Assembly: GCA_016432285.1 (NCBI GenBank)
Contig: CP066682.1
Location: forward strand, 730,274 to 794,273
Source of the DNA: Candidatus Kaiserbacteria bacterium
GTDB taxonomy: Bacteria; Patescibacteriota; Minisyncoccia; Phycocordibacterales; UBA2100
DNA: 64,000 nucleotides
Reading direction: 5' to 3'
A program made the position numbers and the translations under genes. Shown piece after piece: positions 2,523 to 51,000 of this stretch. Each line of letters begins with the position of its first letter. Within the stretch, counting starts at the first letter, position 1. The notes below the pieces were generated by a model. That model was not told where the DNA came from and did not search any database. It saw nothing but the letters and a program-made list of their open reading frames with translations.

Positions 2523-2610
2523 AATACCGAGGTTTAACCTCGGTATACAGGTTTAACCTCGGTATTCACCTGGTTGTCGCCCCTCCGCACCGAGGTTTAA
2601 CCTCGGTGCG
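2523..2610. repeat. REP cluster (family 1): three palindromic copies built on cgaggtttaacctcg
   Basis: ataccgaggtttaacctcggtat (2523-2545), caggtttaacctcggtat (2547-2564) and ccgcaccgaggtttaacctcggtgcgg (2584-2610), immediately upstream of RAYT1. Confidence 0.85.
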
Positions 2611-2628
2611 GAATGGTAGTATGACGAG

Positions 2629-3303
2629 ATGAATCGCCAACCCATCGAGATCGGTGAGTGGTACCACTGCTACAACAGAGGCGTCGATAAAAGAAAAGTT
2701 TTTCTTGGACCAGGAGACTACGATCGTTTCTTGCTGCTCATGTATACGGCGAATGGTCATCTGCCCTCACACACCTTCCATCTTCGCGAAAAGCAACTAC
2801 AGAGATTCCTTGCGGAGGACAAGACGAAGCGCGACCAGATTGTGGAGATCGGAGCATATTCCCTGATGCCGAATCACTTCCACTTTGTGCTCAAGGAAAC
2901 ACGCGCGGGCGGCATCGCTCTGTTCATGCAAAAAGTACTGACCGGATACACCATGTTCTTCAACAAGAAAAACGAACGTACGGGGGCTTTATTTGCAGGG
3001 ACGTTCAAATCAAAGCACATCGACGATGACGATTACTTAAAGCTACTCATCCCCTACGTTCACCTCAACAGCGTCGAGCTGTTTGATCCCAAGTGGAAAA
3101 GCGGGAGAGGCAGCACCGCTGCCGTGCAGCAGCGAGTTTCGCAATACCCCTACTCGAGTTTGATGGATTTCATCGGCAAACCACGTCCCGAAAGGAAAAT
3201 CATTGGAGACGCGATTTTCGAACTGTATGACTCACTTCCGTCTGCACGCGAAATGCTTGACGACGCGAAGGAGTACTTCACGCAAACGAATACCGAGGTT
3301 TAA
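2629..3303 (+). CDS. REP-associated tyrosine transposase (RAYT, IS200/IS605 TnpA-like Y1 HuH family), copy 1
   Basis: 224 aa with a HuH motif (PNHFHFVLKE) and a C-terminal Tyr region (YPYSSLMDF), about 45% identical to the two other copies in the window. Flanked by cognate REPs, and its stop TAA lies in the centre of REP 3291-3311. Confidence 0.85.
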   Translation: MNRQPIEIGEWYHCYNRGVDKRKVFLGPGDYDRFLLLMYTANGHLPSHTFHLREKQLQRFLAEDKTKRDQIVEIGAYSLMPNHFHFVLKETRAGGIALFMQKVLTGYTMFFNKKNERTGALFAGTFKSKHIDDDDYLKLLIPYVHLNSVELFDPKWKSGRGSTAAVQQRVSQYPYSSLMDFIGKPRPERKIIGDAIFELYDSLPSAREMLDDAKEYFTQTNTEV

Positions 3304-3311
3304 CCTCGGTA
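3291..3311. repeat. REP (family 1) copy between convergent RAYT1 and rnc
   Basis: Perfect palindrome taccgaggtttaacctcggta. It contains the RAYT1 stop codon and abuts the rnc stop codon (3312-3314), so it probably acts as a bidirectional terminator hairpin. Confidence 0.85.
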
Positions 3312-4001
3312 CTACCAACCCTTTGCGGTCAGGGCTTTTTGTGCGGCGTCTTGTTCGGCCTCTTGCTTCGAGCGGCCTTCGCCGGAGGCGATTTTCTCCT
3401 TGCCGATATGCGCCGCCACCACGAAGCGTTTGTCGTGATCCGGGCCGCTCTGATCCACAAGCTCGTATTTCGGCGTGACGCCAAGCTGCTCCTGCGCGAT
3501 CTCCTGGAAGCGGCTCTTCGCGTCTTGCCACAAGCGCTTCGAGACCACCTCCTCGGTCTTGTGGAAAAGCTGATCCGCGATGAATTTTTTTGCGGCCTCG
3601 TAGCCGGCGTCGAGGTAGACTGCGCCGATCAGCGCTTCAAAGGCGTTGGCGAGGATGATTTGCCGCGCACGACCGGTGTCTCTCGACTCGCCGCGCGAGA
3701 GAAAGAGGTGATCGTTCATCTGGAGCACGGTTGCCGAAGCTGCGAGCGAGATCGTATTGACGAGCGCTGCCCGGTAGGCGGTGAGATCCCCTTCCGGCCG
3801 GTCGGGAAATTTGGCGTACAAAAATTCGGTAACCACGAGCTCCAGGACCGCGTCGCCCAAAAACTCCAGCCGTTCGTTGTGTTCGCGCCCGAGAGCGCGG
3901 TTTTCGTTGAGGTACGAGCGATGCGTAAACGCCTGCTCCAGGAGGCCCTTTTCCCGGAAGGTGTACCCGATCTTTTTTTCAAAACCAGCGAAGTCGGACA
4001 T
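3312..4001 (-). CDS. rnc: Ribonuclease III
   Basis: RNase III signature ERLEFLGDAVLE near the N-terminus, a C-terminal dsRBD-like region, 229 aa. Confidence 0.9.
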   Translation of the reverse strand: MSDFAGFEKKIGYTFREKGLLEQAFTHRSYLNENRALGREHNERLEFLGDAVLELVVTEFLYAKFPDRPEGDLTAYRAALVNTISLAASATVLQMNDHLFLSRGESRDTGRARQIILANAFEALIGAVYLDAGYEAAKKFIADQLFHKTEEVVSKRLWQDAKSRFQEIAQEQLGVTPKYELVDQSGPDHDKRFVVAAHIGKEKIASGEGRSKQEAEQDAAQKALTAKGW

Positions 4002-4013
4002 GGGTCGATGCTT

Positions 4014-4943
4014 CTATTTCCTGTCTCGCTGCGCGAGGAGATTGATGGCGGGAATAATGATCTTCAGCGTGTCGTCATAGAAATTGAGATCCCCCACCGC
4101 CGCAAGCGGAAACCACTGTGCGTCGTCGAGCCCGCCGGTTTGCTTCAGCTTCAGCTCGGAAAAGGGCGACTCCGCGAGGAAGTAGGTAACGTGCTTTTTC
4201 TTTTTGCCGCCCTCCACCTTGGAGTCGTTGGCCACGTACGTGTTTTCACCGAGCTTCTCCCTGATCATGATATCGAGTCCCATTTCTTCCTTGATCTCGC
4301 GCACCGCCGCCTCCTCGATCGTCTCGTCGCTGATTTCAGGCTTGTCGCCCACCTTGCCCTTCGAGATCGTCCAGTGGCCGAAGATGTCGTGCACGAATGC
4401 GAGGTATGTCTCGTCGCCGTTTTTGGCGTAGACCACGGCACCCGCGAGATGCTCCGTCAGGATCTTGCCCGACTTCGTCGCTTCCTTTTTCCTTGTGCTG
4501 CCCTCGTTTTTGCCGGGTTCCCCCAGCTCGATGTAGACGGCCCCCAAAACACCGTTGACGAATCGCCCTGAAGAGGAGCTGCCAAAAGTTTTCGCAAGCT
4601 CGATGGCCTCGTTGATCGCCACTTTGGCGGGCACTTGCGTGCGGTCGGCATAGAGGAGTTCAGAGAGGCCGAGCCGCAGCACGTTGCGGTCGATCGCCGC
4701 GATCTTTTCGAGCGGCCACTCGGGTGCCGCACGCACGATCACATCGTCGACTTCGCGCTGTTTCGCGATTGCCGTTTGGAGGACGTTTTTCATGAACGGC
4801 ATGTCCGACTCGCGCGCGCCGAACTCTTTCGCGTAGTCAGCGAGTCTTTGTACCGCTTCTTCGTTCGTCATCTTCCCTCCTCCAGCATCACGCTCGAAGA
4901 GAACCTGAAGAACGACGGAGCGGGCTAAGTGTCGATTTGCCAT
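4014..4943 (-). CDS. nusB: NusB-like antitermination domain fused to a C-terminal NUDIX hydrolase domain
   Basis: The N-terminal half carries the NusB hallmarks ARSVVLQVLFE ... VPAKVAINEAIELAKTFG ... FVNGVLG. The C-terminal half has a Nudix box GHWTISKGKVGDKPEISDETIEEAAVREIKEEMGL. A single continuous 309-aa ORF. Confidence 0.75.
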   Translation of the reverse strand: MANRHLARSVVLQVLFERDAGGGKMTNEEAVQRLADYAKEFGARESDMPFMKNVLQTAIAKQREVDDVIVRAAPEWPLEKIAAIDRNVLRLGLSELLYADRTQVPAKVAINEAIELAKTFGSSSSGRFVNGVLGAVYIELGEPGKNEGSTRKKEATKSGKILTEHLAGAVVYAKNGDETYLAFVHDIFGHWTISKGKVGDKPEISDETIEEAAVREIKEEMGLDIMIREKLGENTYVANDSKVEGGKKKKHVTYFLAESPFSELKLKQTGGLDDAQWFPLAAVGDLNFYDDTLKIIIPAINLLAQRDRK

Positions 4944-5035
4944 ACAAAAGAACGGAAAACTACTCTCACCTCTTCAGCTTACAGGAAATACATGAAAAAA
5001 CCGTAAAGAACGGCGCGAACGTGTGAATAGTGTGA

Positions 5036-5317
5036 TTATGCGGAGGTCGTCGCTTCTTCTTTCTTCGTTTCCGTTTGTGCGCCGGCGCCCGCTTGCGGCT
5101 GTTCGGCTTGACGGCGCTTTGCGCGACGTTGCTCACGCTTCGTACGAGCAACCACATCGATCACGACACGGCCGTTGTACTTGCCGCATTCGGGGCATGC
5201 ACGGTGCGGAATGCGGAGCGCGCCGCACTCGCAGGTGGCGAGCTTCTGCGCTTTCAGGGCGTGATGAGAGCGCCGCTTGGCGGTCTCGGATCGATTGCGA
5301 CGCATTCGTACGACCAT
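5036..5317 (-). CDS. rpmF: 50S ribosomal protein L32 with a K/E/A-rich C-terminal extension
   Basis: From the ATG at 5315-5317: MVVRMRRNRSETAKRRSHHALKA, then a CxxC...CxxC zinc ribbon (CECG...CPECGKYNGR) typical of L32, then an extension AKRRQAEQPQAGAGAQTETKKEE. Confidence 0.7.
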   Translation of the reverse strand: MVVRMRRNRSETAKRRSHHALKAQKLATCECGALRIPHRACPECGKYNGRVVIDVVARTKREQRRAKRRQAEQPQAGAGAQTETKKEEATTSA

Positions 5318-5433
5318 AGTCGCAGCACTATACAAAAAAAGCTCGGAATATTCAACCCCTCACACGGTTCCTCCGTTTTTTCAAAAAAGAGAAGACTGCT
5401 CTGCGTGGTATCAACGCTGCCCCGTGTGTGGGG

Positions 5434-6051
5434 TCAAGCGTGCACGGGCTGCTGCATTTTTGGGCCGATCCGCAGGCGCGAGCAGAATGAGACACGGTGC
5501 AGGTCGCTGAGACCATGGCGCGCGATCGCTCGGCGGTGCGCGAGTGTCGCGTAGCCTTTGTGCACGTCGAAGCCGTAGTCCGGATAGTGCTCCGAAAGCT
5601 CCTCCATGCGCCGATCGCGCAAGACTTTGGCCGCGATCGAGGCGAGGGAGATCACGGGCTCGGTCTCGTCGCCGCGTATGATCGTGTGCTGATCAAAAAA
5701 TTCGCGCGGAGCCCGGAGCCCGCCGTCGAGCAGTACCGTACTTTGTGCCACCTGCGGCTCCAGCGCGTAAATCGCCGAATAGAGTGCGCGACGAATCGCC
5801 GATACGATGCCGAACTCATCGATGTAGTCGCACGAGGAAAAGCGCACCGCATAGCGGATTTTGCCTCTGCTCTCGAGTACCTGCATCTGCTCGAATATCG
5901 AATCGCGCACTTGCGGCCGTAGCTGCTTCGAATCGCGTACGCCTTCGAGGAGCAACCAGTCGAAATCTTCGGGAAGAAGCACCGCGCCGACAGCCACGGG
6001 GCCCGCAAGAGGGCCGCGGCCGGCCTCATCGATGCCGATCACGTACCGCAT
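5434..6051 (-). CDS. rnhB: Ribonuclease HII
   Basis: N-terminus MRYVIGIDEAGRGPLAGPVAVGAV, the classic RNase HII catalytic motif. 205 aa. Confidence 0.9.
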   Translation of the reverse strand: MRYVIGIDEAGRGPLAGPVAVGAVLLPEDFDWLLLEGVRDSKQLRPQVRDSIFEQMQVLESRGKIRYAVRFSSCDYIDEFGIVSAIRRALYSAIYALEPQVAQSTVLLDGGLRAPREFFDQHTIIRGDETEPVISLASIAAKVLRDRRMEELSEHYPDYGFDVHKGYATLAHRRAIARHGLSDLHRVSFCSRLRIGPKMQQPVHA

Positions 6052-6124
6052 TACTCAATAAGTATAGCAATCAAAAGGGGCGGAACCGGTGGTCCGCCCC
6101 CTTCTGTTGACAACGCTCGATGCG

Positions 6125-6364
6125 TTAGCCGTTGCCGGTGTCCGGATCGCGAACACCGCGACCGGCGTGTTCACCATGGAACATGCCGCTGGTGTCCGAG
6201 GGACCTGCGGCGTCGGCCTGAACCTGCTGCTGCTGTTGTTGTTGTTGCGGCTGCGCAACAACATCGCCGGGGTGAACGCCGTAGCGCTCCTCCTCGACCG
6301 CCTGCCCTGCGCGAGCATTCTCGTCGGAGGCTGCGCGGCCTCCCTGGGACGTGTGTTTACGCAT
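6125..6364 (-). CDS. Small hypothetical protein with a poly-Gln tract
   Basis: ATG at 6362-6364 with AAGGAA 9-10 nt upstream. 79 aa containing QPQQQQQQQQVQ, encoded by a (CTG)4(TTG)4 tract on the + strand at 6228-6251. No homology recognised. Confidence 0.3.
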   Translation of the reverse strand: MRKHTSQGGRAASDENARAGQAVEEERYGVHPGDVVAQPQQQQQQQQVQADAAGPSDTSGMFHGEHAGRGVRDPDTGNG

Positions 6365-6590
6365 TTCCAAATTCCTTCTTGCAGGTTTGTTGGTCGGAGT
6401 GGGTCCGACACCGCCCGGCTACGCGTACTCTTTTGTGCCACGGTGATACTAGCCCCCACCGTGGCGGCGGTCAACGCCAAAATCCCCAGTGCTATACTCG
6501 CTTTATGAGCGTGCGCGGCTTCACCCATGTGCACCCCAGTACCACAACGCTTCGCGTTGGCTACGGGGCAGGTACCCACTCTCTTACGGT

Positions 6591-9500
6591 ATGAAAGCTG
6601 AGTTTGCGCATCTCCACACACATAGTCACTATTCCCTGCTCGAAGCACTCCCCAAAATACCTGAGCTCGTCGACGCCGCAGTAGCCGACGGACAGAGCGC
6701 GCTCGCTCTCACCGACAACGGCAACCTCTACGGCGCGATCGAGTTTTACAAGGAGGCCAAGGCAAAAGGGATCAAGCCGATCATCGGCGTCAATTTCTTT
6801 GTGGCCCCGCGCACGCGGCACGACAAAGAGCACCGCGTCGACGACGCCCTCTCGCGCCTGCTGCTCTTGGCCAAAAATCTGGAGGGCTACCGCAATCTGA
6901 TACAGCTCGTTTCGCGCTCGCATCTCGAAGGTTTCTTCGACCGCCCCCGCATTGACCGCGAGCTTATTTCGGAGCATCGCGGGGGTCTCATCGCAATCCT
7001 GCCGTCGTACGGCGGCAACCATGCGCACGCACTTCGCCATGGCGCACCCGATCGGGCGTCGCAGGAAATTGAATGGATGAAAAAAGTGTACGGCGACGAC
7101 CTCTACCTCGAGATCACCACGCACCCGGAGATCGACACGCACGAAGATGAGATGCAAAAGATCGTGGAGCTTGGGCGTGCGCAGGGCGTAAAGCTCGTGG
7201 CCGCGCACGATGTGTACTACCTTCGCGAAGACGACGGCCTCGCGAGCGATCTTGTCAACAAAATCCGCACCGGAAGTACTCTCCAGCGCGACGTCGACAC
7301 GGTGCGGCGCGACTTTTCCTTTAAGAAACAAGCAGAGATGAAAAAGCGTTTCGCAGATCTTCCGGAGGCCCTGCACAACAACGCCCGCATCGCCGACATG
7401 TGCGATCTGGAACTGACGCTCGGCTCCTGGGTCTTCCCCGATTACCCCGTGGAAAAGGGCTCGAGCCACGATGGGGAGCTGCGCTCGCTCGCGCACCAAG
7501 GATTCAAGACGCGCGGCGTGCCGGAGAGTGCAGAAAATAAGGAGCGGGTAGAGTACGAACTCTCGATCATCGCCAAAAAAGGCTACTCACCCTACTTTCT
7601 CGTGGTCGCCGACCTCTTGCGGCACGCGCGCGAAGAAGGAATCCTCACCAACACCCGTGGGTCCGCCGCCGGCTCTCTGGTCTCCTACCTCTGCGGGATT
7701 ACCACCGTGAATCCGCTGGAGTACCAGCTCCCCTTCGAGCGCTTCCTCAATCCGGAGCGCCCCTCTCCTCCCGACATCGACATGGACCTCGCCGACAACC
7801 GCCGCGACGAGCTGATCGCCTACGTGCGAAAAAAGTATGGCGAAGAGAAAGTCGCGCAGATCGGCACCTTCGGCACCATGATGGCGCGCGCCGCAGTGCG
7901 CGACGTGGCGCGCGCGCTCGGACTTTCATACGGCACGGGAGATGTGATCGCGAAAATGATCCCTTTTGGGAAGCAGGGCTTTCCCGTCTCGATCGAATCC
8001 TCGCTCCGGGACGTACCCGAGCTCGCCAAAGCGCAGAAGTCTGATCCGACAGTGCGCGAGGTGTTGGATCTCGCGCAAAAAATCGAGGGCAACGCGCGGC
8101 ACGTGGGCGTGCATGCAGCAGGCGTGGTGATCGCTCCCACTGCGGTAACGGATTTCTCACCGGTGCAGCTCGATCCGAAGGGCGGCAAGATCATCACGCA
8201 GTACGACATGTATGCGGTTGAGGAAGCGGGACTCCTCAAGTTCGACTTCCTCGGTCTCACCAACCTCTCGGTCTTGGCCGATGCGGTGTCGCGCGTGAAA
8301 GAGCGCATCGGTGTGGAGGTCGATCTCGATCGGCTCCCGCTCGACGACAAAAAAACCTTCGAGCTGCTCTCGCGCGGCGAGACGCTCGGCGTCTTCCAGC
8401 TCGCGGGAGGCGGCATGACGAGCTACCTTGTCGACCTCGAGCCTTCCTCGATCCACGACATCAACGCCATGGTGGCGCTCTACCGCCCGGGCCCCATGGC
8501 TTTTATCCCCGCGTACATCGAGCGCAAGAAAAATCCGAAGCTTGTGAAGTACCTCGATCCGCGCATGGAGCCGATTCTCAAAAAATCGTACGGCGTCATC
8601 ACCTACCAGGACGACGTCTTGGAGATCGCGATTAAGCTTGCCGGCTACTCGTGGCTTGAGGCGGACGGTTTCCGCAAGGCCATGGGCAAGAAGATCCCGA
8701 AGGAGATGGCCGCACAGAAGGAGAAATTTACCAAAGGCTGCGTTGCGGGCGGCATGAAAAAGGAGACTGTGCAGAAAATCTGGGAGCAGATCGAGACATT
8801 CGCCGCCTACGGCTTCAACAAGGCGCACGCCGCAAGCTACGGCAACCTTGCCTACAAGACCGCGTACATGAAGGCCAACTTCGCGGTCGATTACATGGCC
8901 GCGCTCCTCACGGCCGACGCGGGCGACGTGGAGAAGATTTCGGAAGCTGTGGCGGAGTGCAAGCGCCTGGAGATCACCGTGTGGCCGCCGTCGGTCAAGG
9001 AGAGCGCGGGCACTTTCACGGTGATCGACGACAAGAATATCCGCTTCGGACTCTACTCGATCAAAAACTTCGGCACCGGCGTCGCTGATTCGATCATCGC
9101 GGCACGCCAAAAAGACGGGCCCTTCAAAGACATTGCCGACTTTCTTTCGCGTGTTACCGACAAGAATCTCAACCGCAAATCACTCGAGTCGCTGATCCAG
9201 TGCGGCGCCTTCGACGACATGGGGATCACGCGCGGCGAGCTGATGGCCAACATCGAGACACTGCTCACCTTCCACCGTGAGCACCTCAAAGCGCCGCAAG
9301 ACCAGGGCTCGCTTTTCGGCGCGCTCGCTCCTGCGAAGATCTCGCTCTCGCTCGAAAAAGCGCAGCCGGTACCGCTCGACGTGCTGCTCGAATGGGAGAA
9401 GGAGCTCCTCGGGCTCTACGTGTCGGGCCACCCGCTCGACAAGCACAAAGATAAGCTCACGCGCCAGAAGATGGACATCAAAACCGGCAAGGAAAAGTTC

Positions 9501-9752: not shown

Positions 9753-9762
9753 ACGCCTGTGG

Positions 9763-9792
9763 CCTGCCCCGTTGGAAGCGAAGCTTTCCAAC
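9763..9792 (+). terminator. Strong hairpin just after the dnaE stop (no U-tract)
   Basis: ccccgttggaagc-gaa-gctttccaacgggg, a stem of about 13 bp with one bulge. No T-run follows, so it is classed as a hairpin or possible non-canonical terminator. Confidence 0.35.
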
Positions 9793-9892
9793 GGGGTGGA
9801 GCGCGCAATGGTGCGCAAAGCTTGACGAACGACCTCTTTTGGGTTAAAAACAGGACTGAAACTTCACCGTTCTTCAACAAGGGGGCTACACG

Positions 9893-10303: not shown

Positions 10304-10312
10304 CACCACTTA

Positions 10313-10355
10313 TGGCGGCGGCGCGAGAAATCTCGTGCCGCCGTTTCGTTTTTTA
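10313..10355 (+). terminator. Rho-independent terminator
   Basis: Stem ggcggcgcgag/ctcgtgccgcc with loop aaat, then gtttcgtttttt. Confidence 0.7.
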
Positions 10356-10378
10356 AGATATTTGCTAGTATCGTTTCT

Positions 10379-11596
10379 ATGTCAGACAAGGACGCGCTCC
10401 CCGACCACCGACGCCTCGGGCAGGAACTCGACCTCTTCGTCTTTTCGGATCTCGTGGGAAGTGGTCTCCCGCTCTGGACTCCGCGTGGCACGCTCTTGAG
10501 AAATCTGCTCGACGACTACGTGTGGGAGATGCGCAAGGCCCGCGGGTACGAAAAAGTCGAGATCCCGCACATCACCAAGAAGGAGCTCTACGAAACGAGT
10601 GGCCACTGGGACAAATTTAAGGACGATCTCTTCCGCATCACGACCCGCGAGGGCCACGAGTTTGCGATGAAGCCGATGAACTGCCCGCATCACACGCAGA
10701 TCTACGCCCGGAGGCCGTGGAGTTACCGAGAGATTCCGCAGCGCTACGCCAACAGCACCATGTGCTACCGCGACGAACAGTCGGGAGAGCTGAACGGCCT
10801 CTCGCGCGTTCGTGCCTTTACCCAGGACGATGCGCACGTTTTCTGCCGCGAACCCCAAGCGAAAGAGGAGTTTCTCAAGATTTGGGACATCATTGAGGAG
10901 TTCTATGGAACATTTGGTTTCAATCTCAAGATCCGCCTCTCCCTTCATGATCCAAAGGAACCGGACAAATATCTGGGAGACAAGAAGCGCTGGACAGCGG
11001 CGGAGCGGACGCTTACGGACATTGCAAAGGAAAGAGGCGTCGAATCCTCAATGGGAGTGGGCGAGGCAGCCTTCTACGGACCGAAAGTCGACTTTATGGC
11101 GGAAGACAGTCTCGGGCGGGAGTGGCAGGTGGCGACGATCCAACTCGATCTCAACATGCCGGAGCGCTTCGATCTCACGTGTGTGAACGAAAAAGGCGAG
11201 AAAGAGCGGGTCGTGATGATCCACGCGGCGATCATGGGATCGATCGAGCGCTTCCTTTCGATACTGCTGGAGCACCTCGACGGCAAACTCCCCACGTGGC
11301 TCTCCCCGGTACAGGTAGCAGTGCTCCCAGTCTCAGAAAGACACGCCCCGTACGCAGCGCAAATCCTCGAAGGGCTGCAACAGGCCGGGATTCGCGCGGA
11401 AATCAACGCCGACGACCCGCTGGGCAAGCGCATCCGGGAATCTAAAGTAAAAAAGATCCCGTACACGATCGTCGTCGGCGACGAAGAAATGAGCGCGAAG
11501 ACCGCCACACTCGAAGGCCGTACCGGCAAACTGGGCGTTCTTCCGATCGCGGATATTGTTTCAAAACTGGAAGAAGAAATACGAAATCGAGCCTAA
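10379..11596 (+). CDS. thrS: Threonyl-tRNA synthetase, catalytic plus anticodon-binding domains only (N-terminal TGS/editing domains absent)
   Basis: A class II aaRS core with ThrRS-specific zinc-site residues (KPMNCPHH...; motif 2 MCYRDEQSGELNGLSRVRAFTQDDAHVFC; motif 3 GSIERF) and a C-terminal anticodon-binding domain. Only 405 aa, against about 640 for canonical bacterial ThrRS. Confidence 0.85.
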   Translation: MSDKDALPDHRRLGQELDLFVFSDLVGSGLPLWTPRGTLLRNLLDDYVWEMRKARGYEKVEIPHITKKELYETSGHWDKFKDDLFRITTREGHEFAMKPMNCPHHTQIYARRPWSYREIPQRYANSTMCYRDEQSGELNGLSRVRAFTQDDAHVFCREPQAKEEFLKIWDIIEEFYGTFGFNLKIRLSLHDPKEPDKYLGDKKRWTAAERTLTDIAKERGVESSMGVGEAAFYGPKVDFMAEDSLGREWQVATIQLDLNMPERFDLTCVNEKGEKERVVMIHAAIMGSIERFLSILLEHLDGKLPTWLSPVQVAVLPVSERHAPYAAQILEGLQQAGIRAEINADDPLGKRIRESKVKKIPYTIVVGDEEMSAKTATLEGRTGKLGVLPIADIVSKLEEEIRNRA

Positions 11597-11602
11597 ACAA
11601 AA

Positions 11603-11633
11603 ACCCCGCCTAAAGGCGGGGTTTTTGTTTCTA
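11603..11633. terminator. Bidirectional rho-independent terminator
   Basis: aaaaccccgcc-taa-aggcggggtttttgttt, with an A-tract before the stem and a T-tract after it, lying between the convergent thrS and the 11673..13385 gene. Confidence 0.8.
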
Positions 11634-11672
11634 CTTTGGAGCGTTGGGGACGGCGGTCCGCCAGCTGGCGGA

Positions 11673-13385
11673 TTAGCTGCGCGCGATCACGATGCGCGGA
11701 GCGGCGCCGTCTTCCGGGCGAACGAAGCTCATCGCGTCTTTCGGTGCTTCGACAAAGAAGCGGGGTGCCTCTTCGCGAACCGGGAGGTTTGCGAGGCTAG
11801 CCGAACGAGCGATTGCCGGAGCCACTTTCTTTCCAAAGAGTGCCGGAGCTGCGACGGAGCCCGAGGACTGTGCCACCGGGGAGCGCTTCGGAGTGGCGAC
11901 CGCGAGCTTCGGAAAACCGAGACCCATGTTCGGGATGTAGTAGAGCGCGAGGTAGGCGCCGGCTGCCGCGAAGACAAGGAGCGAGCCGTAGAAGGCAGCG
12001 TTGCCCAAAAGCCCTGCGTCGAATCCGGTGTACGGAATCTGCGAGAGCGAGACCGAGGGACCGGCGACGTTGACCGCGACGTTGCAGGTGCGCGTGCCGC
12101 CTTGGCCCTGCACCGTGAGCACGTAGTTGGTCGAGACGTTGGGGCGCACCGTCAGAGAGCCGTTCGGTGAGACGTTGCCGATGCCGTCGGAGAGCCACGC
12201 CGAGTACGCGCCGTAGCTGGTCCACGAGAGCACCGTCGCCTGACCGTTTTGGATGTACGACTGCGAGGTCGTGATGATGCAGTAGAGGCCCTGCTGCGGA
12301 TACACCGGCGTTTGCGGGTAGACCGGGTACTGCGGATAAACGTACTGCACCGGGTACTGGATCGGGGTCTGATAGACCGGCGTTACTGTCGAGACGTTGG
12401 TGTTGCAGCTGCCGCCTGTGCACGTGTTGGTGTTGATGTTCGTGTTGGTGTTCGTGTTGACGATGTTGGTGCTCGGCGTCGGGAAGTAGACCGGAGGCTG
12501 TGGCTGCGGACGCGGAGGCTGTGGATAGACCGGAGGATAGCTCGGCGGCTGCGGCCGGATGACCGGCGGAGTCGTGTAGCTCGGCGGATAGCTCACCGAA
12601 CGCGGAGCCGAGTAGCTCGGAGCCGAGACGCGGAACGGCGCTGCGGCGGAAGCGTACTGCGGGTTCGAGTAGTTCTGCATCGAGTACCGCGTACCGAATT
12701 CATCAACATAGGTGTCGTAGATGCCGTACTCACTGTAGAGACCGTAAATATCGTACGGAGAAGAGTCACCGAAAAGCGCGCCTGTTCCATCACCAAAGAG
12801 TGCGCCGGAACCATCGCCGAAGTACGGATTGGAGCCGTCGCCAAAGAGACTGCCGGCACCATCGCCGAAGTACGAGCCAAGGCCATCGCCGTAGAAGTTA
12901 CCGAGGCCATCACCGAAGTACGAACCGGAGCCGTCCCCGAAGTACGAACTGAGACCATCGCCAAAGTACGAGCCGGAGCCATCGCCGAAGTACGGATCGG
13001 ATCCGTCGCCAAAGAGAGAGCCTGAGCCATCGCCATAGTAATAGCCGGAGCCGTCGCCGTAGATTGAACCGGAGCCGTCATCGAAGTAGGCGCCCCCTCC
13101 GTCGCCGTAATAGTAGCTTGCGCCATCACCGTAGAGGTTGCCAGCACCGTCTCCAAAGTAGAAACCACTCCCGTCATCATAGACAGAGCCGCCGCCGTCG
13201 CCGTAGTAGTAGCTTGCGCCATCACCGTAGAGGTTGCCGACACCATCACCAAAGAAACTTCCAAGTTCGTCGCCGCCGTAGGTATCGGCCGCCTCAGCGA
13301 CGCCAAAACTGCCCGCAAAAACGAGTGCGAGAGCGATGAGCCCGCCAAGAAATACGTTTGCATTTACACTGGATGCGGTTTTCAT
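11673..13385 (-). CDS. Secreted, C-terminally anchored protein with about 25 tandem octapeptide (F/Y)GDGxGx(Y/F/L) repeats
   Basis: Signal peptide MKTASSVNANVFLGGLIALALVFAGSFGVAEA. Residues about 40-240 are FGDGSGSY/FGDGLGNF/YGDGGGSV repeats, which show as a 24-nt DNA period from 12700 to 13300. These are followed by a Pro/Tyr/Gln-rich linker, an NTNTNINTNT tract, a beta-rich domain, an IPYTG motif, then a hydrophobic segment and a basic tail. Confidence 0.7.
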   Translation of the reverse strand: MKTASSVNANVFLGGLIALALVFAGSFGVAEAADTYGGDELGSFFGDGVGNLYGDGASYYYGDGGGSVYDDGSGFYFGDGAGNLYGDGASYYYGDGGGAYFDDGSGSIYGDGSGYYYGDGSGSLFGDGSDPYFGDGSGSYFGDGLSSYFGDGSGSYFGDGLGNFYGDGLGSYFGDGAGSLFGDGSNPYFGDGSGALFGDGTGALFGDSSPYDIYGLYSEYGIYDTYVDEFGTRYSMQNYSNPQYASAAAPFRVSAPSYSAPRSVSYPPSYTTPPVIRPQPPSYPPVYPQPPRPQPQPPVYFPTPSTNIVNTNTNTNINTNTCTGGSCNTNVSTVTPVYQTPIQYPVQYVYPQYPVYPQTPVYPQQGLYCIITTSQSYIQNGQATVLSWTSYGAYSAWLSDGIGNVSPNGSLTVRPNVSTNYVLTVQGQGGTRTCNVAVNVAGPSVSLSQIPYTGFDAGLLGNAAFYGSLLVFAAAGAYLALYYIPNMGLGFPKLAVATPKRSPVAQSSGSVAAPALFGKKVAPAIARSASLANLPVREEAPRFFVEAPKDAMSFVRPEDGAAPRIVIARS

Positions 13386-17300: not shown

Positions 17301-17771
17301 TTAGCGGCCGACCGGCACCGCGTAGCCGATGTCGATCGGACGGCCGATTTCGACAGCGTACCCGAGATCGATCGCGTGTCCGATTTCCACGCCGTACCCG
17401 ATCGTGATTGGACGACCCACGTTGACGCCATAACCAATCGGCACCGCGTATCCCAAGGTGATCGGACGGCCCACCGGCACGGGGTAGCCGAGCGTAATCG
17501 GACGGCCCGTCGGCACTGGATAGCCGGTCGGTACGGGAGAGCCCGTCGGATACGGGCGCCCGACGGAGGCGGGCGAGCCGGTGTAGCCGGGAGAGCCGTA
17601 TGAGCTCGGCGAAGCGTACGCCGACGGATATGCGTAGCCCGCGGAATAAGCGTAGGCAGAAGGGTACGCGTACGCGGAGTCGTACGAAGCGTACGACGGA
17701 TACGCCTGCGCGCTCGCGCTCCCGATGCTGACGGCAAAGAAAGCGATTGTGATGAGAAGAATTTTTTTCAT
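17301..17771 (-). CDS. Secreted repetitive protein (Tyr/Ala/Ser-rich, then GRPIT(L/I)GY(A/P)VPVG repeats)
   Basis: Signal peptide MKKILLITIAFFAVSIGSASAQA. Then AYPSYASYDSAYAYPSAYAYSAGYAYPSAYASPSSYGSPGY. Then six or seven 13-aa repeats GRPITLGYPVPVG, GRPITLGYAVPIG, GRPITIGYGVEIG, GRPIDIGYAVPVG. Confidence 0.6.
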   Translation of the reverse strand: MKKILLITIAFFAVSIGSASAQAYPSYASYDSAYAYPSAYAYSAGYAYPSAYASPSSYGSPGYTGSPASVGRPYPTGSPVPTGYPVPTGRPITLGYPVPVGRPITLGYAVPIGYGVNVGRPITIGYGVEIGHAIDLGYAVEIGRPIDIGYAVPVGR

Positions 17772-18436: not shown

Positions 18437-18604
18437 ACACATTGCAATAATACCCCGTGAATGCCCATCTGTCAAGATCTCTTTGTCGGAATCGTCGCCT
18501 CTTTACACACAGGGCCTTGCCCAGAGGACTGTCCTCTGGGGTTTTCCGCTTTGGGGTATTTAAATGGAACCGAGAGGCTTGACAAAGCAAAAATATGTAG
18601 TAGT

Positions 18605-34650: not shown

Positions 34651-34669
34651 CGGGATTTCGTAAATCCCG
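34651..34669. repeat. REP (family 2) copy upstream of RAYT2
   Basis: cgggatttcgtaaatcccg palindrome, 4 nt after the pfkB stop and 8 nt before the RAYT2 start. Confidence 0.8.
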
Positions 34670-34676: not shown

Positions 34677-35330
34677 ATGGAGTTTTACCACGCACTCAAC
34701 AGGGGCGTTGAAGGCCGCAAACTCTTCCTCGACGACAGAGATCGTTTTCGATTCGTGCACGATCTGTGGGAATTCAACGACTCTGCACCTGCACCCGAAT
34801 TCTCCCGATATCGGGATTTACGAAATCCCGATACCTTGCCCGCACGTGAGCGCATCGTTGATATTCACGGTTGGTGCCTGATGAGCAATCACTACCACCT
34901 CTTACTCTCCGAGTGCCGCGAGGGAGGCCTTTCCTACTTTCTTCGAAAACTCAACGTGGGATACGCCAACTATTTTAACGAAAGATATGAAAGGCAGGGG
35001 TCCTTGTTCCAAGGACGAACGAAGAAAATCCTCATCGCGTCAGACGCACACTTTCTTCACATTCTGCACTACATACACCTCAATCCACTCGACTTCCTTC
35101 GAGCGACCCGTGATTGGCGCGCCGGGCGCATTGTTGGTCGCGGGCGAGCGATTGAGCACCTACAGAAGTATCGTTGGAGCAGCTATCTGGACTATTGCAG
35201 CCGAAAAAATTTCCCCTCCGTCGTTACAACGGAGTTGTTCGTAGATGTCTTCAAGAACTATGAAAAAGTGATTCGTTCCTACCTACAAGATATGGAGTTT
35301 GACGACGTACGTCCCCTGCTGCTTGAGTAG
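34677..35330 (+). CDS. REP-associated tyrosine transposase (RAYT), copy 2, with a REP-derived in-frame insert
   Basis: MEFYHALNRGVEGRKLF...GWCLMSNHYHLLLSE (HuH)...YRWSSYLDY (Tyr). An 11-bp-arm REP palindrome at 34807-34834 encodes residues ...RYRDLRNPDT... inside the ORF. Confidence 0.85.
   Translation: MEFYHALNRGVEGRKLFLDDRDRFRFVHDLWEFNDSAPAPEFSRYRDLRNPDTLPARERIVDIHGWCLMSNHYHLLLSECREGGLSYFLRKLNVGYANYFNERYERQGSLFQGRTKKILIASDAHFLHILHYIHLNPLDFLRATRDWRAGRIVGRGRAIEHLQKYRWSSYLDYCSRKNFPSVVTTELFVDVFKNYEKVIRSYLQDMEFDDVRPLLLE
34807..34834. repeat. REP (family 2) copy embedded in-frame within the RAYT2 coding sequence
   Basis: tatcgggatttacgaaatcccgata is a perfect palindrome with 11-bp arms and the same family as the flanking copies. 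The ORF frame stays open across it. Confidence 0.8.
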
Positions 35331-35341: not shown

Positions 35342-36360
35342 TTACCGGGATTTACGAAATCCCGGTGTGGGTGATCGCCGGGCGGCCGCGCGGATCACCG
35401 CCTCTTTGATCGCGGTGTGAGACATGCCGAAGTGCTCGATAAGCTCCTGCGCCTCTCCCGACTGGCCGAAGCGATCCTGCATGCCGATAAACTCGATCGG
35501 CACCGGAGCCTCTCGCGAGAGGAGCTCGGCGATCGCGCCCCCGAAGCCCCCGTGCACCTGGTGCTCCTCCACGGTAACGACCGCACCCGCGCGCGTCGCC
35601 TCGCTAACGATCGTCTCCCGGTCGAGCGGCTTCACCGTGTGCACGTTGACCACGCTCACCTCGGTACCTTCGGCCTCCAGATCGCGCGCCGCAAGGAGCG
35701 CCTGATAGAGAAGAGAGCCTGTCGCGAAAATCGCGACCGATGGATTTTTGGATTGCCAGAAGAGCTGCGCCTTGCCGATCTGAAACGGCGTATCGGGAGT
35801 CGTCATGACAGGACTCTTTTCCCTGCCCCATCGCATGTACACGGGAGTGCCGAGCTTGGCAGCCGCGATCGTCGCCTTCCTGCCCTCCTCCGAATCGCAC
35901 GCGGAAATCACGGTAAAGCGCGGGATCGCGCGCATCATCGCGAGATCTTCGAGCGCCTGATGCGTCGCGCCGTCGGGGCCGACGGAAACGCCCGCGTGCA
36001 TGCCGCAGACGATGACCGGCACGTTGTTGATCCCGATCGTGGTGCGAATCTGCTCCCAGTTGCGGCCCGGATTGAACGCCGCGTAGGAGGTGATGAACGG
36101 AATCTTGCCGTAATTGGCCATGCCCGCCGCAACCGTCGCGAGGTTCTGCTCCGCGACGCCCACCTGCACGAAGCGCTCGGGAAATGCCTTTTCGAAATGG
36201 TGCGCCTGCGTGCTCTCCGCGAGGTCTGCCGTCAGCACGACGACGCGCTCATCGGCTTTTCCCGCTTCGACGACCCCTTTGCCAAACCCTTCGCGCGTCG
36301 AAGCCATCGCGGGCTTCTCGAAGATATTCTCGGCGAGTTTTGCGTCGGGATTGATCATAC
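35342..36360 (-). CDS. tkt: Transketolase, C-terminal subunit (pyrimidine-binding plus C-terminal domains)
   Basis: Start MINPDAKLAENIF at the ATG 36358-36360. Transketolase Pyr domain (...FPERFVQVGVAEQNLATVAAGMA...) and the C-terminal domain. The last 7 codons and the stop are REP-derived. Confidence 0.85.
35344..35366. repeat. REP (family 2) copy at the tktC 3' end
   Basis: accgggatttacgaaatcccggt. Read on the minus strand it encodes the last residues PGFRKSR, and the stop codon of the transketolase C-subunit ORF sits beside it. Confidence 0.8.
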
Positions 36361-39931: not shown

Positions 39932-39937
39932 GGGAGC

Positions 39938-40753: not shown

Positions 40754-40755
40754 GG

Positions 40756-41190: not shown

Positions 41191-41206
41191 GGAAAAAGAA
41201 ATCGTA

Positions 41207-42384: not shown

Positions 42385-42385
42385 G

Positions 42386-43390: not shown

Positions 43391-43416
43391 GCGCAGAATG
43401 ATACTATATCTCCGCG

Positions 43417-44412: not shown

Positions 44413-44479
44413 GGTCCCTTTCAGTATATAAGAGGAATGCCTCTCGCGTGGCATTGTCCCCACGAGTACGTCTTGTATT

Positions 44480-45637: not shown

Positions 45638-45645
45638 ATCGCGCA

Positions 45646-46815: not shown

Positions 46816-46840
46816 GCGACAATTATAAACTTTCGAGATC

Positions 46841-47380
46841 TCAGAATTTGAACAGAACGGTGCCGATCATCTCCGAGGGCTGGATTGTGCCCCAGACCCG
46901 GCTGTCTTCACTTTGCGCGCGGTTGTCTCCCATGAGGAAATAATCTTCAGGACCCAGCTTCATTTCAAAATCCGGGCCGTTCCCCGCCTTTTCCCCTTCT
47001 TCCCATTTCTCAATGTTCGCCCCTTTCTCCTCTGCTCCCCCTTCCTCCCATTTTCCCCCTTTTCCCCTTTCTGCTGTCACCGATCCGTTCGCAATGCGGA
47101 TCGTTTCGTTCGGCAGTCCGATTACGCGCTTGAGGATGATCGGGTGCTGCGGATTACGCGGATCGCGGAACACCACCGGCGAGCCGCGGAAAAGCCCGAT
47201 AAGCCGCGGCGAGATCTTTTCCACGAGCAGGTAATCACCTTCCTGAAAAGTCGGCTGCATAGAAATTCCCGTCACGATATACGGCCGTATCAGAAAAGGC
47301 AGGAGCAAAATCAGAGTTGCAACAACGGTCAAGACTGGATCCCTCCGAATTCCTGGGAGGTTTAGCCTTCCAATTTTCAT
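46841..47380 (-). CDS. lepB: Signal peptidase I
   Basis: SPase I boxes: GISMQPT (Ser nucleophile), KRVIGLPNETI (Lys general base box) and GDNRAQSEDSRVWG. It has an unusual Gly/Glu/Lys-rich insertion (GKGGKWEEGGAEEKGANIEKWEEGEKAG). The ATG at 47378-47380 overlaps the RAYT3 stop (ATGA), and the first about 10 codons are REP-derived. Confidence 0.8.
   Translation of the reverse strand: MKIGRLNLPGIRRDPVLTVVATLILLLPFLIRPYIVTGISMQPTFQEGDYLLVEKISPRLIGLFRGSPVVFRDPRNPQHPIILKRVIGLPNETIRIANGSVTAERGKGGKWEEGGAEEKGANIEKWEEGEKAGNGPDFEMKLGPEDYFLMGDNRAQSEDSRVWGTIQPSEMIGTVLFKF
47352..47373. repeat. REP (family 3) copy at the RAYT3/lepB junction
   Basis: cctgggaggtttagccttccaa with arms gggagg/ccttcc. It lies within the first codons of lepB. 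Confidence 0.8.
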
Positions 47381-48036
47381 ACGCCGACATCTTTGTATCG
47401 TAGCCAATAATCCACATGATCCTGAACTTCCCTAGCGCTCGATAGGTACCCGGGGAAAGCTCGCGGAGAAGTAATTACGTGACGGTTGTTGATATATTCT
47501 CCCAGGCTCGAATACTGATACTCGCTTACATGTCTCTGTAGTTTCCCAAAGTCGCGTGCTCCGAATTTCTTCCAATTTGGATCTTTCAATTTGGCTGGAT
47601 TTAGATGAATATAGGAAAATAAATATTTAGCATACGCATCACCCTCCACGTGCGAGGCCTTAAACGTCCCCTGAAAAAGCGCGCCACTTCGCTCATGTTT
47701 TTCATTGAAATACATCGTATACGCAGTCTGTAGTCTCTGCATAAATTTCGAGATACCGCCGTCGACCAGCGGTGTCAGATACAGATGAAAATGATTGGGC
47801 ATCAAACAATACGCGCCTATTGCCACTAAAGAACTGGAAGGTTTAGCCTCCCAGATCCGGCTCGAGGTTTTAGAAGAGAATAGAAAATCGATTCTTTTGT
47901 TTTCTCTATCATTGAGCAGGAAAAGGTACACCAGAAATCTTTTGTACTCCGCTGGCGACATGAACACTCGGCGTTTATCAACGCCTCTATTGTAAATGTG
48001 ATAGAACTCGCCTTCTGCAAAGGTGATGCGTCTCAT
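47377..48036 (-). CDS. REP-associated tyrosine transposase (RAYT), copy 3, with a REP-derived in-frame insert
   Basis: MRRITFAEGEFYHIYNRGVDKRRVF...GAYCLMPNHFHLYLTP (HuH)...SEYQYSSLGEY (Tyr). The internal REP at 47834-47854 encodes ...RIWEAKPSSS... Its start ATG overlaps the stop of the giant upstream ORF, and its stop overlaps the lepB ATG. Confidence 0.85.
   Translation of the reverse strand: MRRITFAEGEFYHIYNRGVDKRRVFMSPAEYKRFLVYLFLLNDRENKRIDFLFSSKTSSRIWEAKPSSSLVAIGAYCLMPNHFHLYLTPLVDGGISKFMQRLQTAYTMYFNEKHERSGALFQGTFKASHVEGDAYAKYLFSYIHLNPAKLKDPNWKKFGARDFGKLQRHVSEYQYSSLGEYINNRHVITSPRAFPGYLSSAREVQDHVDYWLRYKDVGV
47834..47854. repeat. REP (family 3) copy embedded in-frame within the RAYT3 coding sequence
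   Basis: ctggaaggtttagcctcccag. The reading frame is maintained across it. It sits in the same protein loop as the embedded REP in RAYT2. Confidence 0.8.
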
Positions 48037-51000
48037 AGAGTGGGCGGATCGCGGCGCTCACTGGAAGGTTTAGCCTTCCAACGGGAGCGGGGCGGAGCGT
48101 CTACTGGAAGGTTTAGCCTTCCAGTGGGGGGCTTCCCTCTTGGGACGGGGAGGATGAAGAAGGACATGCCGATGAGGAAGGCGATGGCTTGGACGAAAGA
48201 GGAGACGACGGAGGCGGCGGAAGCGGCGGAGTATTTGAAGGGCTGCTCGGCAAATGCCATGTACACGTACGTCCCCCCGCTCGCATTTGCACCAGCTGCC
48301 GTGTTTCGCTGCTTGAACCCATTGGCGAGAAAATCCATATCGTTGCAGGACGCGGTTTCCGCTGCGTTGGACTCCAATCCAAAACACGGACTGATCGGAT
48401 TACTCGTATCTCGCGCCGCATCGTATGTATTCCAAGAGTATCCGAGCGTGTCTGTCCGTTTGATCACTACGTACTTAGGTTTGAACCCCGTGTACACAAA
48501 CGGCCCATCGGCCGAGCCGTTGCCGGTGTAGGAGCCGAAGTCGGAGAAGCCGGAGATTTCATCAAAAAGATAGGCGACATAGTTGTTGCCGCTGGTATTC
48601 ACATCAGCATTGGTACCGAGCGAGAAGACGGATGCGGTCGGCGCGGTGTCGTTCCAGTAGGTGGCATCGTCGGCGGTCGCGGCTGTGCCGTTCATCAAGA
48701 GGTAATCGGTCTCCGGCGCTGAAGTATTGGCAGCGTGGTAGACCGCCCAGTCGTTGGTCGCGCCGCGGTCTTTTACGATCATAAATTCTGGTGCAGAAGA
48801 GAGCGAATGGCTGATTGTGCGATTGGCACCGGTGCCGGCGTACGGCACGATATCGAATCCGCTCGTCGGATCTTCCTTCCAAAGCCACGAGATGTAGTTG
48901 TTGCCGCTTGTGTTGAAGAGCGAATTTGTGCCGAGCGTGAAGCCGTTTTCCAAGAATGCGGTGAGTGCCGATGCCGAGCTCGTCTCAATCGTCGTCGCGT
49001 TTGAAGAAAGATACGGAAACGTACTGCGTAGCGAATCGAAGAGCCCGTGCGCATTCGCGCTCGTTCTGTCTTTTATCCATGTGAGCGTCGGCGTGAAGTC
49101 GAGCCCCGTCACCGAGAGCGCGGCCCCCGTCCCCGTGTACGTGAGCGCATCGAAGTAATCATCGGGCTGCGTAATCGTCGGCGTAGGAAGATTCGTGGTC
49201 GAGAGGGCTTTGAAATCCGTCGGTGGTGCGTATTGGAAGTACCCTCCTGCCGATGAGCGGTATGGAAGTACCGTTGCTGTTGATGTCGGCGAAGAAGACT
49301 GGCCGAAGTTGAAATTGTACGAATGAGTCTGCCCGCTGGTTTGGCCAGCACCCGCGCCAATGAAGAGCGGGCCAGTGAGACCAGTAAATGCCGAGTTCGT
49401 GCCCGCTGCCGGATCACCGCTCGCCTGCCACGTGCCATTTTTTGAAAACCAAATCTTTCCGTTATCCAAATCGAGCGCAACGCCAATAACGTCGTTGGTC
49501 GTAAAGGTGTCGCCATAGGCGCTGTCACTGCTGCTATTTCGCTTGTTTCCACCACCTGCGTACGTGTACGCGAGATAATTGCTCTCGAGAATACAGTTTT
49601 GAACGGATGACGCGCCGATGAGATATCCTCCGCTAACGCCCGTAGTTCCGGTCGGGACGATCTCGGCGTACCATTTGCCCGATGTGGGTCCGATGGAAGA
49701 GCGACCGAATGTATAACAAGCCGGCGACGCGGGAAAGCTGTCTATCGTTGCCGTGAGGTTTCCTTGAGCAGCCGTCAGATCACTCGACGAATTTGCCAGT
49801 ATGTTTAGAGTCGCAGACCCATTCGTCGGGGAATCCTTGACGTTGTCGGTCGCGTCGAGGTTGTTGGCCGTCCAGTCATTGTTGTTGCTACTCGTATCGT
49901 CGCCGGGGCTGGTGGAGGTGAGCGGCAGGTGGAATCCATTAGTGCCATACGTCCCCGAATATGTCTTCGGTCGCCAGTAGCCCGATGCGTCGTATTCGCC
50001 GAAGTCGGAGGGGGTGAGTGCTTGTCCGTCGATGGCGTAGAAATCCGCAAGGTAGCCGTCGTAGTAAGAGGTCCCGCTATGCTGTTTGCCGAAAGCGTGT
50101 ATGACATTGTCGAGAACGTTCACGTCCGAGTTTTGCGTCATTGATGTATAGCCGGAGCCCGACCACGTTTGTGCAACGCCATTGACCCAAAGCCGGATTC
50201 TATCCGCGGCAGTTGCCTGCGTACTGTCTACGGTAAAGACAATGTGGAGCCACGCACCTGGATCGCGAAACTTCGCGTTTGTTGTATAGCTCCAGGTCTC
50301 ATTACCTGCATAGCCATACAACGTATCGCTGGTCGTAAACCGGAGGCCGTCTGCCGAGTATGCCGACCAGTTGATAAGAAATTGCTCGGTCCCCAGATTT
50401 GCCCGCTTGACCCAAAAGCTGAACGTCGCTGTCTTGCCCGCACCCGTCCCCGCAGATGAGAACGTTTTGGTTAGACTCGCACTATCGTCATCATTGAAAC
50501 GCGTGCTCGATGCGATGGTGAGGTTGTACGCTTGCGCGGATTGCTGGAAGGGCTGTTCGGCGAATGCGGCGTAGACGTACGTGGCACCACTGGCATTGTA
50601 GTTGGCATCCGTCGCACGCGGCTTGAATCCGTTTGAGAGAAAATCCATCTGCCTACTTGATCCGTCGTCTGCGTTTGTCAGATTGGCGTAGATCATGATG
50701 TCGCGGAGATTACCGTCGCCAGCAGCGCTACGTCGGTTGTCCCAGATGTACCAGCCGTTCGTTGAGGCACTGTCGCTTCTTTTTACAAGCAAGAACGCCG
50801 GCTTGAATCCCGTATACACGAACGGCCCATCGCTTGAGCCGTTGCCGGTGTAGGAGCCAAAAGATGAGTAGCCGGTGGTAGAGGCGAAGAGGTAGGCGAC
50901 GTAGTTGTTGCCGCTTGTATTTACATCCGCGTTGGTGCCGAGCGAGAAGACGGATGCGGTCGGAGCCGTATCGTTCCAATATGTAGCGTCGTCGGCAGTT

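Follow-up and report, generated by a model that had tools for sequence, protein, structure and literature searches.

Three RAYT-like Y1 HUH genes in a Kaiserbacteria genome, each with its own palindrome family: probable members of a cassette lineage widespread in Patescibacteria

What are three transposase-like genes, each accompanied by a palindrome family of its own, doing within 64 kb of an ultra-small genome? The stretch that raises this question, hereafter the window, comprises 64,000 nucleotides of a Candidatus Kaiserbacteria bacterium (assembly GCA_016432285.1, contig CP066682.1 of 859,170 bp, positions 730,274 to 794,273). The genes, here named RAYT1, RAYT2 and RAYT3, were taken in a preliminary description for three families of tyrosine transposases linked to repetitive extragenic palindromes (REPs), or RAYTs, each with a cognate REP, an observation that is confirmed in part and was largely right. 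The three loci are probably paralogous REPtron- or TIRtron-like cassettes of a lineage widespread in Patescibacteria. In the best-supported account, each cassette would encode a RAYT-like class-2 Y1 HUH single-strand DNA endonuclease/ligase, with its own recognition hairpin ~10-45 nt upstream of the start codon, again at the stop codon or immediately past it, and in many cases also in frame within a surface loop, and the genes are long-term residents with mostly vertical inheritance rather than active multi-copy insertion sequences (ISs). This account draws on the observed protein family and fold, the one-to-one pairing of gene and palindrome, an architecture repeated across the family, concerted variation of the palindromes and synteny.

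RAYT1 (2629-3303, plus strand, 224 aa, QQG37812.1), RAYT2 (34677-35330, plus strand, 217 aa, QQG37846.1) and RAYT3 (47377-48036, minus strand, 219 aa, QQG37861.1), whose start overlaps the stop codon of a giant open reading frame (ORF) in the sequence ATGA, are all annotated as 'MAG: transposase [Candidatus Kaiserbacteria bacterium]' (MAG, metagenome-assembled genome). In the alignment, the HUH motif is NHFH in RAYT1 and RAYT3 and NHYH in RAYT2, and all three proteins have the tyrosine motif Y[VI]HLN[PS], which reads YIHLNP in RAYT2 and RAYT3 and YVHLNS, with serine replacing proline, in RAYT1. The catalytic tyrosines are Y143, Y132 and Y142 in RAYT1, RAYT2 and RAYT3, respectively, and the HUH and tyrosine residues are invariant in 119 aligned relatives. 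The Pfam family PF01797 (Y1_Tnp) is matched with E-values of 5e-4, 5e-5 and 1e-8 (20.6, 23.8 and 35.3 bits, in the same order), RAYT1 narrowly missing the gathering score of 23 bits. With these motifs and matches the three Y1/HUH genes stand as first described; their mutual identity had been put at 40-50%, which is true of one pair only, since RAYT1 and RAYT3 share 47% of residues over their full length, whereas RAYT1 and RAYT2 share 29% and RAYT2 and RAYT3 30-34%. For a confident AlphaFold2 model of RAYT3 (pLDDT 88.8, pTM 0.86), the top match in the PDB is 4ER8, Escherichia coli TnpA-REP with a REP hairpin (E 1e-5, TM-score 0.66 on the target), followed by the TnpA proteins of ISDra2, IS608 and IS200. 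A sequence-profile search of the PDB also places 4ER8 first, if weakly (E 0.033); the profile is required, as the search with a single sequence gave no match, and E. coli TnpA-REP is only 12% identical to these proteins. With an HUH motif, a single tyrosine and the Y1 transposase fold, the three proteins are members of the Y1 HUH superfamily.

Class-2 TnpA-Y1 proteins have the tyrosine signature Y-x-x-x-N-P (Quentin 2018, PMC6006769), and their subclass 2.1 is characterized by NH[YF]H, FQ and Y[IV]HLNP motifs, SS in the tail and a median length of 238 aa (Table 1, Quentin 2018, PMC6006769). This subclass corresponds to group 1 of Bertels and consists largely of TIRYTs (PMC6006769; PMC5581495; Di Nocera 2013, PMC3733652). 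The window proteins have FQ where others have WQ or WE, and SS in a C-terminal tail of ~75 aa. They match subclass 2.1 (RAYT group 1, TIRYT) at the level of motifs, not by phylogeny, and by the same motifs do not match groups 2 and 3, the classical REP-associated RAYTs of proteobacteria.

Each gene is surrounded by a private palindrome family. F1, CGAGGTTTAACCTCG, has four copies at RAYT1 (at 2528, 2547 with 2 mismatches, 2591 and 3294), F2, GGGATTTCGTAAATCCC, has three at RAYT2 (34652, 34813 and 35347), and F3, GGAAGGTTTAGCCTTCC, has four at RAYT3 (47355, 47836, 48063 and 48106), compared with 0.15, 0.01 and 0.00 matches, respectively, expected by chance from shuffles. A search of the window with ≤4 mismatches gives no additional copy of any family, and within the 64 kb no family occurs near the RAYT of another. 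The one-to-one pairing without cross-occurrence that was originally proposed is strict in the window and recurs in homologous loci.

Upstream of RAYT1, a distal F1 copy (ATACCGAGGTTTAACCTCGGTAT, 2524-2546; -9.9 kcal/mol, z = -6.3) is abutted by a degenerate copy (ATACAGGTTTAACCTCGGT, 2545-2563, 2 mismatches), and a proximal copy with a 14-bp stem (2584-2612; -17.1 kcal/mol) ends 16 nt 5' of the ATG. The downstream copy (3291-3311) has the TAA stop codon of RAYT1 at its centre, and the stop codon also lies inside the downstream palindrome in the RAYT1 orthologues of two other loci (L088 and L008). F2 is found upstream of RAYT2, 4 nt past the pfkB stop codon and 8 nt before the ATG (34651-34669), in frame inside the gene with its loop inverted relative to the upstream copy (34809-34833, encoding YRDLRNPD), and downstream over the last codons of a minus-strand transketolase-C ORF (35344-35366). 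The F3 copies lie downstream of RAYT3, between it and lepB (47353-47372, 1 mismatch), in frame inside the gene (47834-47854, encoding IWEAKPSS), where the copy adds 8 aa to a surface loop modelled with low confidence, and twice in the 3' tail of the upstream 1952-aa ORF, proximally (48061-48081) and distally (48103-48125), the distal copy belonging to a 43-nt tandem unit. The statement that all copies sit between gene ends is thus wrong for six of the 11 (34813, 47836, 3294, 48063, 48106 and 35347). Folded as single-stranded DNA, eight of the ten copies tested reach -6.4 to -17.1 kcal/mol and beat all 200 shuffles; the two imperfect F3 copies do not. The cores are of the type AGG-N5-CCT or ATTT-N3-AAAT, and the flanks are not long terminal inverted repeats (TIRs) of the GGGGWSAS type. 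Promoter and terminator scans identified only two F3 copies that fit a simple terminator pattern, and a scan with Rfam and for tRNAs gave only a tRNA-Thr and no RNA-family match to the palindromes.

This arrangement is normal for Patescibacteria. A profile of the three proteins detects >5,900 relatives among 8,000 candidates scored, mostly from Patescibacteria, and when 1.84 billion cluster representatives are searched exhaustively with a profile, 1,489 clusters are found at E ≤1e-30 and 17,028 at E ≤1e-10, the family size of ~1,500 being a count of clusters at 50% identity. The 120 best relatives fall into three clades. Each window gene has its own patescibacterial relatives at 60-73% identity, and the three are therefore old lineages rather than recent duplicates, in agreement with the separate lineages first proposed. 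Architecture was surveyed in 80 metagenome loci (cited by L-numbers) with homologues 35-54% identical, and in closer orthologues. A locus-specific palindrome is present on both sides in 73 of the 90 genes with enough flank. Its upstream core ends a median of ~24 nt short of the ATG, and the copy on the downstream side begins at -22 to +27 nt relative to the stop codon. A detector-free test looks for words of ≥12 nt common to 120 nt of upstream flank and a stretch of 125 nt around the stop codon. Of 78 non-redundant loci, 60 share such a word (median 19 nt), compared with nine of 600 pairs in a mismatched-locus control (median 7). On contigs with two paralogues (L043, L047, L048 and L083), each gene has a different palindrome. 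The AGG-N5-CCT core, which F1 and F3 have, is shared without variation by 46 of 59 distinct palindromes, the centre and outer stem of which vary; the RAYT2 clade has another core. An extra copy inside the gene is present in 20 of the 78 loci, mostly at +136 to +183 nt, where F2 and F3 of the window also have their internal copies; this site maps to a low-confidence loop (aa 50-70) in the RAYT3 model.

What had been considered an unusual arrangement is instead the norm in a patescibacterial family of ~1,500 clusters, and its density is also not exceptional: additional paralogues occur once per ~122 kb in the flanks of the metagenome loci, and three genes in 64 kb represent a mild cluster (P ~0.1). 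A preference of non-IS TnpA-Y1 genes for large genomes, and their absence from small ones, has been reported (Quentin 2018, PMC6006769), and a 0.86-Mb Kaiserbacteria genome with at least three such genes runs contrary to this trend. The literature that we searched contained no paper on RAYTs in Patescibacteria. In one locus of the survey, a RAYT homologue is directly followed by a tandem array of eight copies of its own palindrome, CGAGGCCCGGCCTCG, with a period of 17 nt (L084, 948-1083).

The copies of one cassette vary in concert. In the syntenic RAYT1 lineage, the window and L088 (72% protein identity) have TACCGAGGTT[T/A]AACCTCGGTA (also written TACCGAGG) at both ends, and L105 (59% identity) has ATATTGAGGTTTAACCTCAATAT (also written TATTGAGG) at both; as the two ends match within the window and L088 and again within L105, the stem changes are compensatory and common to both ends. 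In the RAYT3 lineage, the internal copy of L098 is altered together with the flanking copies, and [EK]AKP is always encoded. Three species of the RAYT2 lineage do not differ in the 25-nt internal palindrome, while the codons next to it diverge; inverting the 3-nt loop of this internal F2 copy turns the peptide DLRN into DFVN, and relatives show both forms (7 vs 4). Across loci, hairpin distance increases as protein identity falls (Spearman -0.37, 0/500 permutations). Direct and inverted orientations of the left and right loops are about equally frequent (34 vs 32), and a test for RNA-level selection, comparing G-U with A-C mismatches on the coding strand, was negative, with eight G-T and 18 A-C stem mismatches (eight A-C cells stem from the single tandem array of L084) and hence no G-T excess. 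Given the even loop orientations and the lack of a G-T excess, the constraint looks strand-symmetric, which points to DNA and not to mRNA structure.

Solitary copies exist and are rare. The flanks of relatives contain ten distant copies compared with ~0.05 expected by our own estimate, and L080 has six copies in 9.4 kb. A scan for the F3 20-mer in a collection of genome contigs of which the source MAG is not a member gave six matches compared with ~4 expected by chance; four look real, three in the Nomurabacteria MAG TH-Jun18-118 (L003, L004 and L005) and one in the Patescibacteria MAG H43-bin093_1 (L007). In these four 8-kb loci the exact 22-nt F3 palindrome, CTGGAAGGTTTAGCCTTCCAG, is solitary, with no RAYT within 4 kb. 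With few distant copies in relatives and none in the window, dispersal is real but sparse in the sequences covered, and these palindromes are probably not high-copy REPs. In L007, the F3 palindrome forms part of the 3' end of a 266-aa ORF, and MAG H43-bin093_1 also carries a cassette of the RAYT2 clade (L092). The window has six AGG-N5-CCT palindromes, compared with 0.19 expected. A perfect palindrome with this core, CCCAGAGGACTGTCCTCTGGG (18520-18540), lies far from the RAYTs, apparently between divergent genes, and may be an orphan copy from a cassette elsewhere in the genome. A further orphan AGG-N5-CCT palindrome, ACGGCAAGGTCTTACCTTGCCGT, is located 4.4 kb from the RAYT1 orthologue of Kaiserbacteria GCA_001783375.1 (L105, 2840-2862) and differs from the hairpin of that orthologue.

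The chromosomal positions of the cassettes indicate residence, with signs of rare movement. RAYT1 orthologues (72% and 59% identical) are located at the same place, between SMC and rnc-nusB/NUDIX-L32-RNase HII, and RAYT3 orthologues (64-67%; L097 and L098) lie downstream of a ~2000-aa ORF, as in the window. RAYT2 orthologues (70-73%; L092 and L094) have the same three hairpins but lie between GAPDH and an Ig-like gene, a junction that is empty in the window (26 nt); conversely, the pfkB/tktC junction of L094 has no RAYT, and in L067 this junction is occupied by a RAYT of another clade in opposite orientation. No near-identical cassette duplicates were seen, paralogues on the same contig being 29-47% identical. 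The synteny of RAYT1 and RAYT3 and the other site of RAYT2 together suggest mostly vertical inheritance with rare relocation of the cassette as a unit. RAYTs are described as single-copy per type, vertically inherited and housekeeping-like (Bertels 2017, PMC5581495); the synteny of RAYT1 and RAYT3 agrees with this, and the RAYT2 clade is the exception. The GC content at third codon positions (GC3) is 0.62, 0.59 and 0.47 in RAYT1, RAYT2 and RAYT3, compared with 0.64-0.80 in neighbouring genes. Recent horizontal transfer, which this might suggest, was discarded as the principal explanation, given that the gene of lowest GC3, RAYT3, nevertheless has syntenic orthologues. The idea of phage-borne cassettes was likewise dropped, as viral contigs gave one remote match of 18% identity, and a tblastn search of plasmids returned only genes 24-32% identical and annotated 'transposase', which is uninformative. 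The convergent pfkB/transketolase-C junction contains a different insert in each relative (L092 4178-4895; L094 3261-3412; L067 1154-2154), in L092 a 182-aa ORF between repeats containing CCTATAGGTA and in L094 a 152-nt long palindrome, and looks like an insertion hot spot.

How might such a cassette work? We propose that hairpins would extrude from the palindromes when the DNA is single-stranded and that the enzyme would read the constant AGG/CCT top of the stem together with the gene-specific outer stem, and then cut and rejoin the DNA nearby. This activity, or selection to match the enzyme, could hold the copies of one cassette identical while the cassettes diverge from one another, and it might occasionally seed a solitary copy or move a whole cassette. 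Several points weigh against such an account. Binding and cleavage, and with them the homogenisation of copies, are predictions from the fold and from analogy with 4ER8 and IS608, and a perfectly symmetric site would equally suit a dimeric regulator that binds double-stranded DNA. The sole NCBIfam match is the RayT equivalog NF047646, at 29.6, 36.6 and 37.1 bits for RAYT1, RAYT2 and RAYT3 compared with a cut-off of 80 bits; the assignment to subclass 2.1 is one of motifs and not of phylogeny; and the C-terminal tails of all three proteins match no Pfam family at E up to 10, the helix-turn-helix (HTH)-like domain (Bac_DnaA_C, HTH_23, HTH_28) reported for subclass 2.1 (PMC6006769) being undetected. 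The flanks of all 11 copies have no consistent GTAG or GTGG tetranucleotide at the hairpin foot, and no dispersed copy of F1, F2 or F3 is found away from the genes in the 64 kb. REPs are by definition repeats spread in large numbers over a genome, and the canonical REP has GT[AG]G at the 5' foot of its hairpin; on both grounds the label REP, used in the preliminary description, is unjustified. Lastly, the different site of RAYT2 in relatives is compatible with occasional mobility as well as with paralogy followed by differential loss.

The most serious competitor, although we consider it unlikely, is an autonomous minimal element of the IS200/IS605 type, of which the hairpins would be the subterminal ends and whose whole gene would move by single-strand 'peel and paste'. 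Such an element would have the order hairpin-gene-hairpin, as in IS608, and the fold found here is common to the TnpA proteins of IS608 and ISDra2. It would also accommodate the RAYT2-clade cassettes, which have identical hairpins at GAPDH/Ig-like in L092 and L094 and at pfkB/tktC in the window, with the alternative sites empty, as well as the reversed cassette of another clade at pfkB/tktC in L067 and the GC3 of the RAYTs (0.47-0.62), which is below that of their neighbours. However, near-identical duplicates are absent and same-contig paralogues, besides being only 29-47% identical, have different hairpins, and RAYT1 and RAYT3 orthologues hold their chromosomal position down to 59-67% identity. 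The proteins themselves have Y-x-x-x-N in place of Y-x-x-x-Q and a ~75-aa C-terminal tail, no tnpB accompanies them, the left and right loops are randomly direct or inverted, unlike the strand-specific ends of an IS, and the family is essentially absent from viral contigs.

Still less probable is that the palindromes are purely cis-regulatory, serving as operators, terminators or mRNA hairpins with no DNA breakage or copying. Their fixed positions relative to the start codon (median ~24 nt upstream) and the stop codon, the fit of symmetric sites to dimeric binding, the two F3 copies that resemble simple terminators and the very small number of copies away from genes are all compatible with regulation. 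Yet the invariance of the HUH and tyrosine residues in 119 relatives argues for a nuclease chemistry that has been kept, solitary copies away from genes do exist, one locus has the 17-nt tandem array, and no G-U bias marks the mRNA strand; moreover, regulation alone leaves unexplained why as many as four copies, a coding one included, change in concert. That the association of palindrome and gene arose by chance or as an assembly artefact is refuted for practical purposes: the shortness of the repeats is all that speaks for it, whereas shuffles give 0-0.15 copies where each family has 3-4, the same sequence is present in independent Logan assemblies and the pattern recurs in 60 of 78 independent loci. 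REPtron- or TIRtron-like resident cassettes remain the probable explanation.

A bolder version of this reading, which we put forward tentatively and rather doubt, is that the cassettes are a class of Y1 HUH systems in their own right, found in ultra-small genomes throughout the phylum and belonging neither to ISs nor to REP/REPIN systems, in which the enzyme might copy or repair its own hairpin at the 5' flank, in the internal loop and at the stop codon. If this were so, a signal embedded in an ORF would evolve with its flanking copies, override codon conservation (DLRN to DFVN) and define a self-addressed, occasionally relocating cassette. The natural protein-hairpin pairs, with a constant AGG/CCT core and a variable outer stem, represent a data set on how HUH proteins read hairpins, the rules of which are of interest for HUH-tag and single-stranded DNA-editing tools, and they bear on the persistence of 'domesticated' transposases in streamlined genomes.

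Other repeats were noted in the window. The giant ORF upstream of RAYT3 (48033-53891, minus strand, 1952 aa) contains ~300-nt blocks that are duplicated 2.3 kb apart and 72-88% identical, and its last ~30 codons are made up of two F3 hairpins. A very strong hairpin at 11595-11630, with a 17-bp stem (AAACAAAAACCCCGCC-TA-AAGGCGGGGTTTTTGTTT), looks like a bidirectional intrinsic terminator. Direct repeats with a 24-nt period at 12763-13290 (13 overlapping 168-nt copies, 60-73% identical) are presumably a repetitive coding region, and those with a 36/54-nt period at 17308-17528 (five copies, 63-73% identical) probably belong to a repeat protein.

Among known systems, IS200/IS605 elements such as IS608 and ISDra2 share the Y1 HUH fold and have subterminal hairpins on both sides of tnpA, which are recognised as single-stranded DNA. 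They (subclass 1.1) differ in their Y-x-x-x-Q signature and core-only proteins of 130-150 aa, compared with Y-x-x-x-N and 217-224 aa here, in being multi-copy and near-identical where the present paralogues are 29-47% identical, in strand-specific ends, left unlike right, and in the frequent presence of tnpB, the neighbours here being housekeeping genes. In the group 4 RAYTs (subclass 2.4; Quentin 2018), too, cognate palindromes interrupt the enzyme's own gene in frame, at a peripheral loop; the internal copies described here, however, precede the HUH motif (aa 45-66), and the YIxNNP and WQ motifs of that subclass are not found. The REPtron of E. coli TnpA-REP (group 2, subclass 2.2; Ton-Hoang 2012; Messing 2012) contains the top structural match (4ER8), and it too combines cognate hairpins bracketing a single-copy, vertically inherited gene with one-to-one pairing of gene and repeat. 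In contrast, identity to this protein is 12%, NF047646 is matched with 30-37 bits compared with 80, and the palindromes here have neither the GTAG guide tetranucleotide nor bulged long stems, nor, in the 64 kb read, evidence of hundreds of dispersed copies.

Another close resemblance is to the TIRtrons and their TIRYTs (subclass 2.1, group 1; PMC3733652; PMC6006769; PMC5581495), although here too the differences are several. TIRtrons have long TIRs, many with GGGGWSAS, whereas the present cassettes have short perfect palindromes, mostly with an AGG-N5-CCT core; the HTH-like tail reported for subclass 2.1 is not detected here; about a quarter of the genes have an in-frame internal copy; and the host is a patescibacterium of ~0.86 Mb, although non-IS TnpA-Y1 genes are reported to favour large genomes. 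Subclass 2.1 was, in addition, described as being without adjoining REP-like structures (Quentin 2018, PMC6006769), whereas a hairpin-gene-hairpin layout recurs throughout the family described here. Shared with the TIRtrons are the NH[YF]H, FQ, Y[IV]HLNP and tail SS motifs in proteins of ~220-240 aa, the presence of several different genes in a genome whose dispersed repeats are few or absent, low copy number, low identity among the copies of one genome and, for each gene, flanking repeats of its own, some of them self-complementary.

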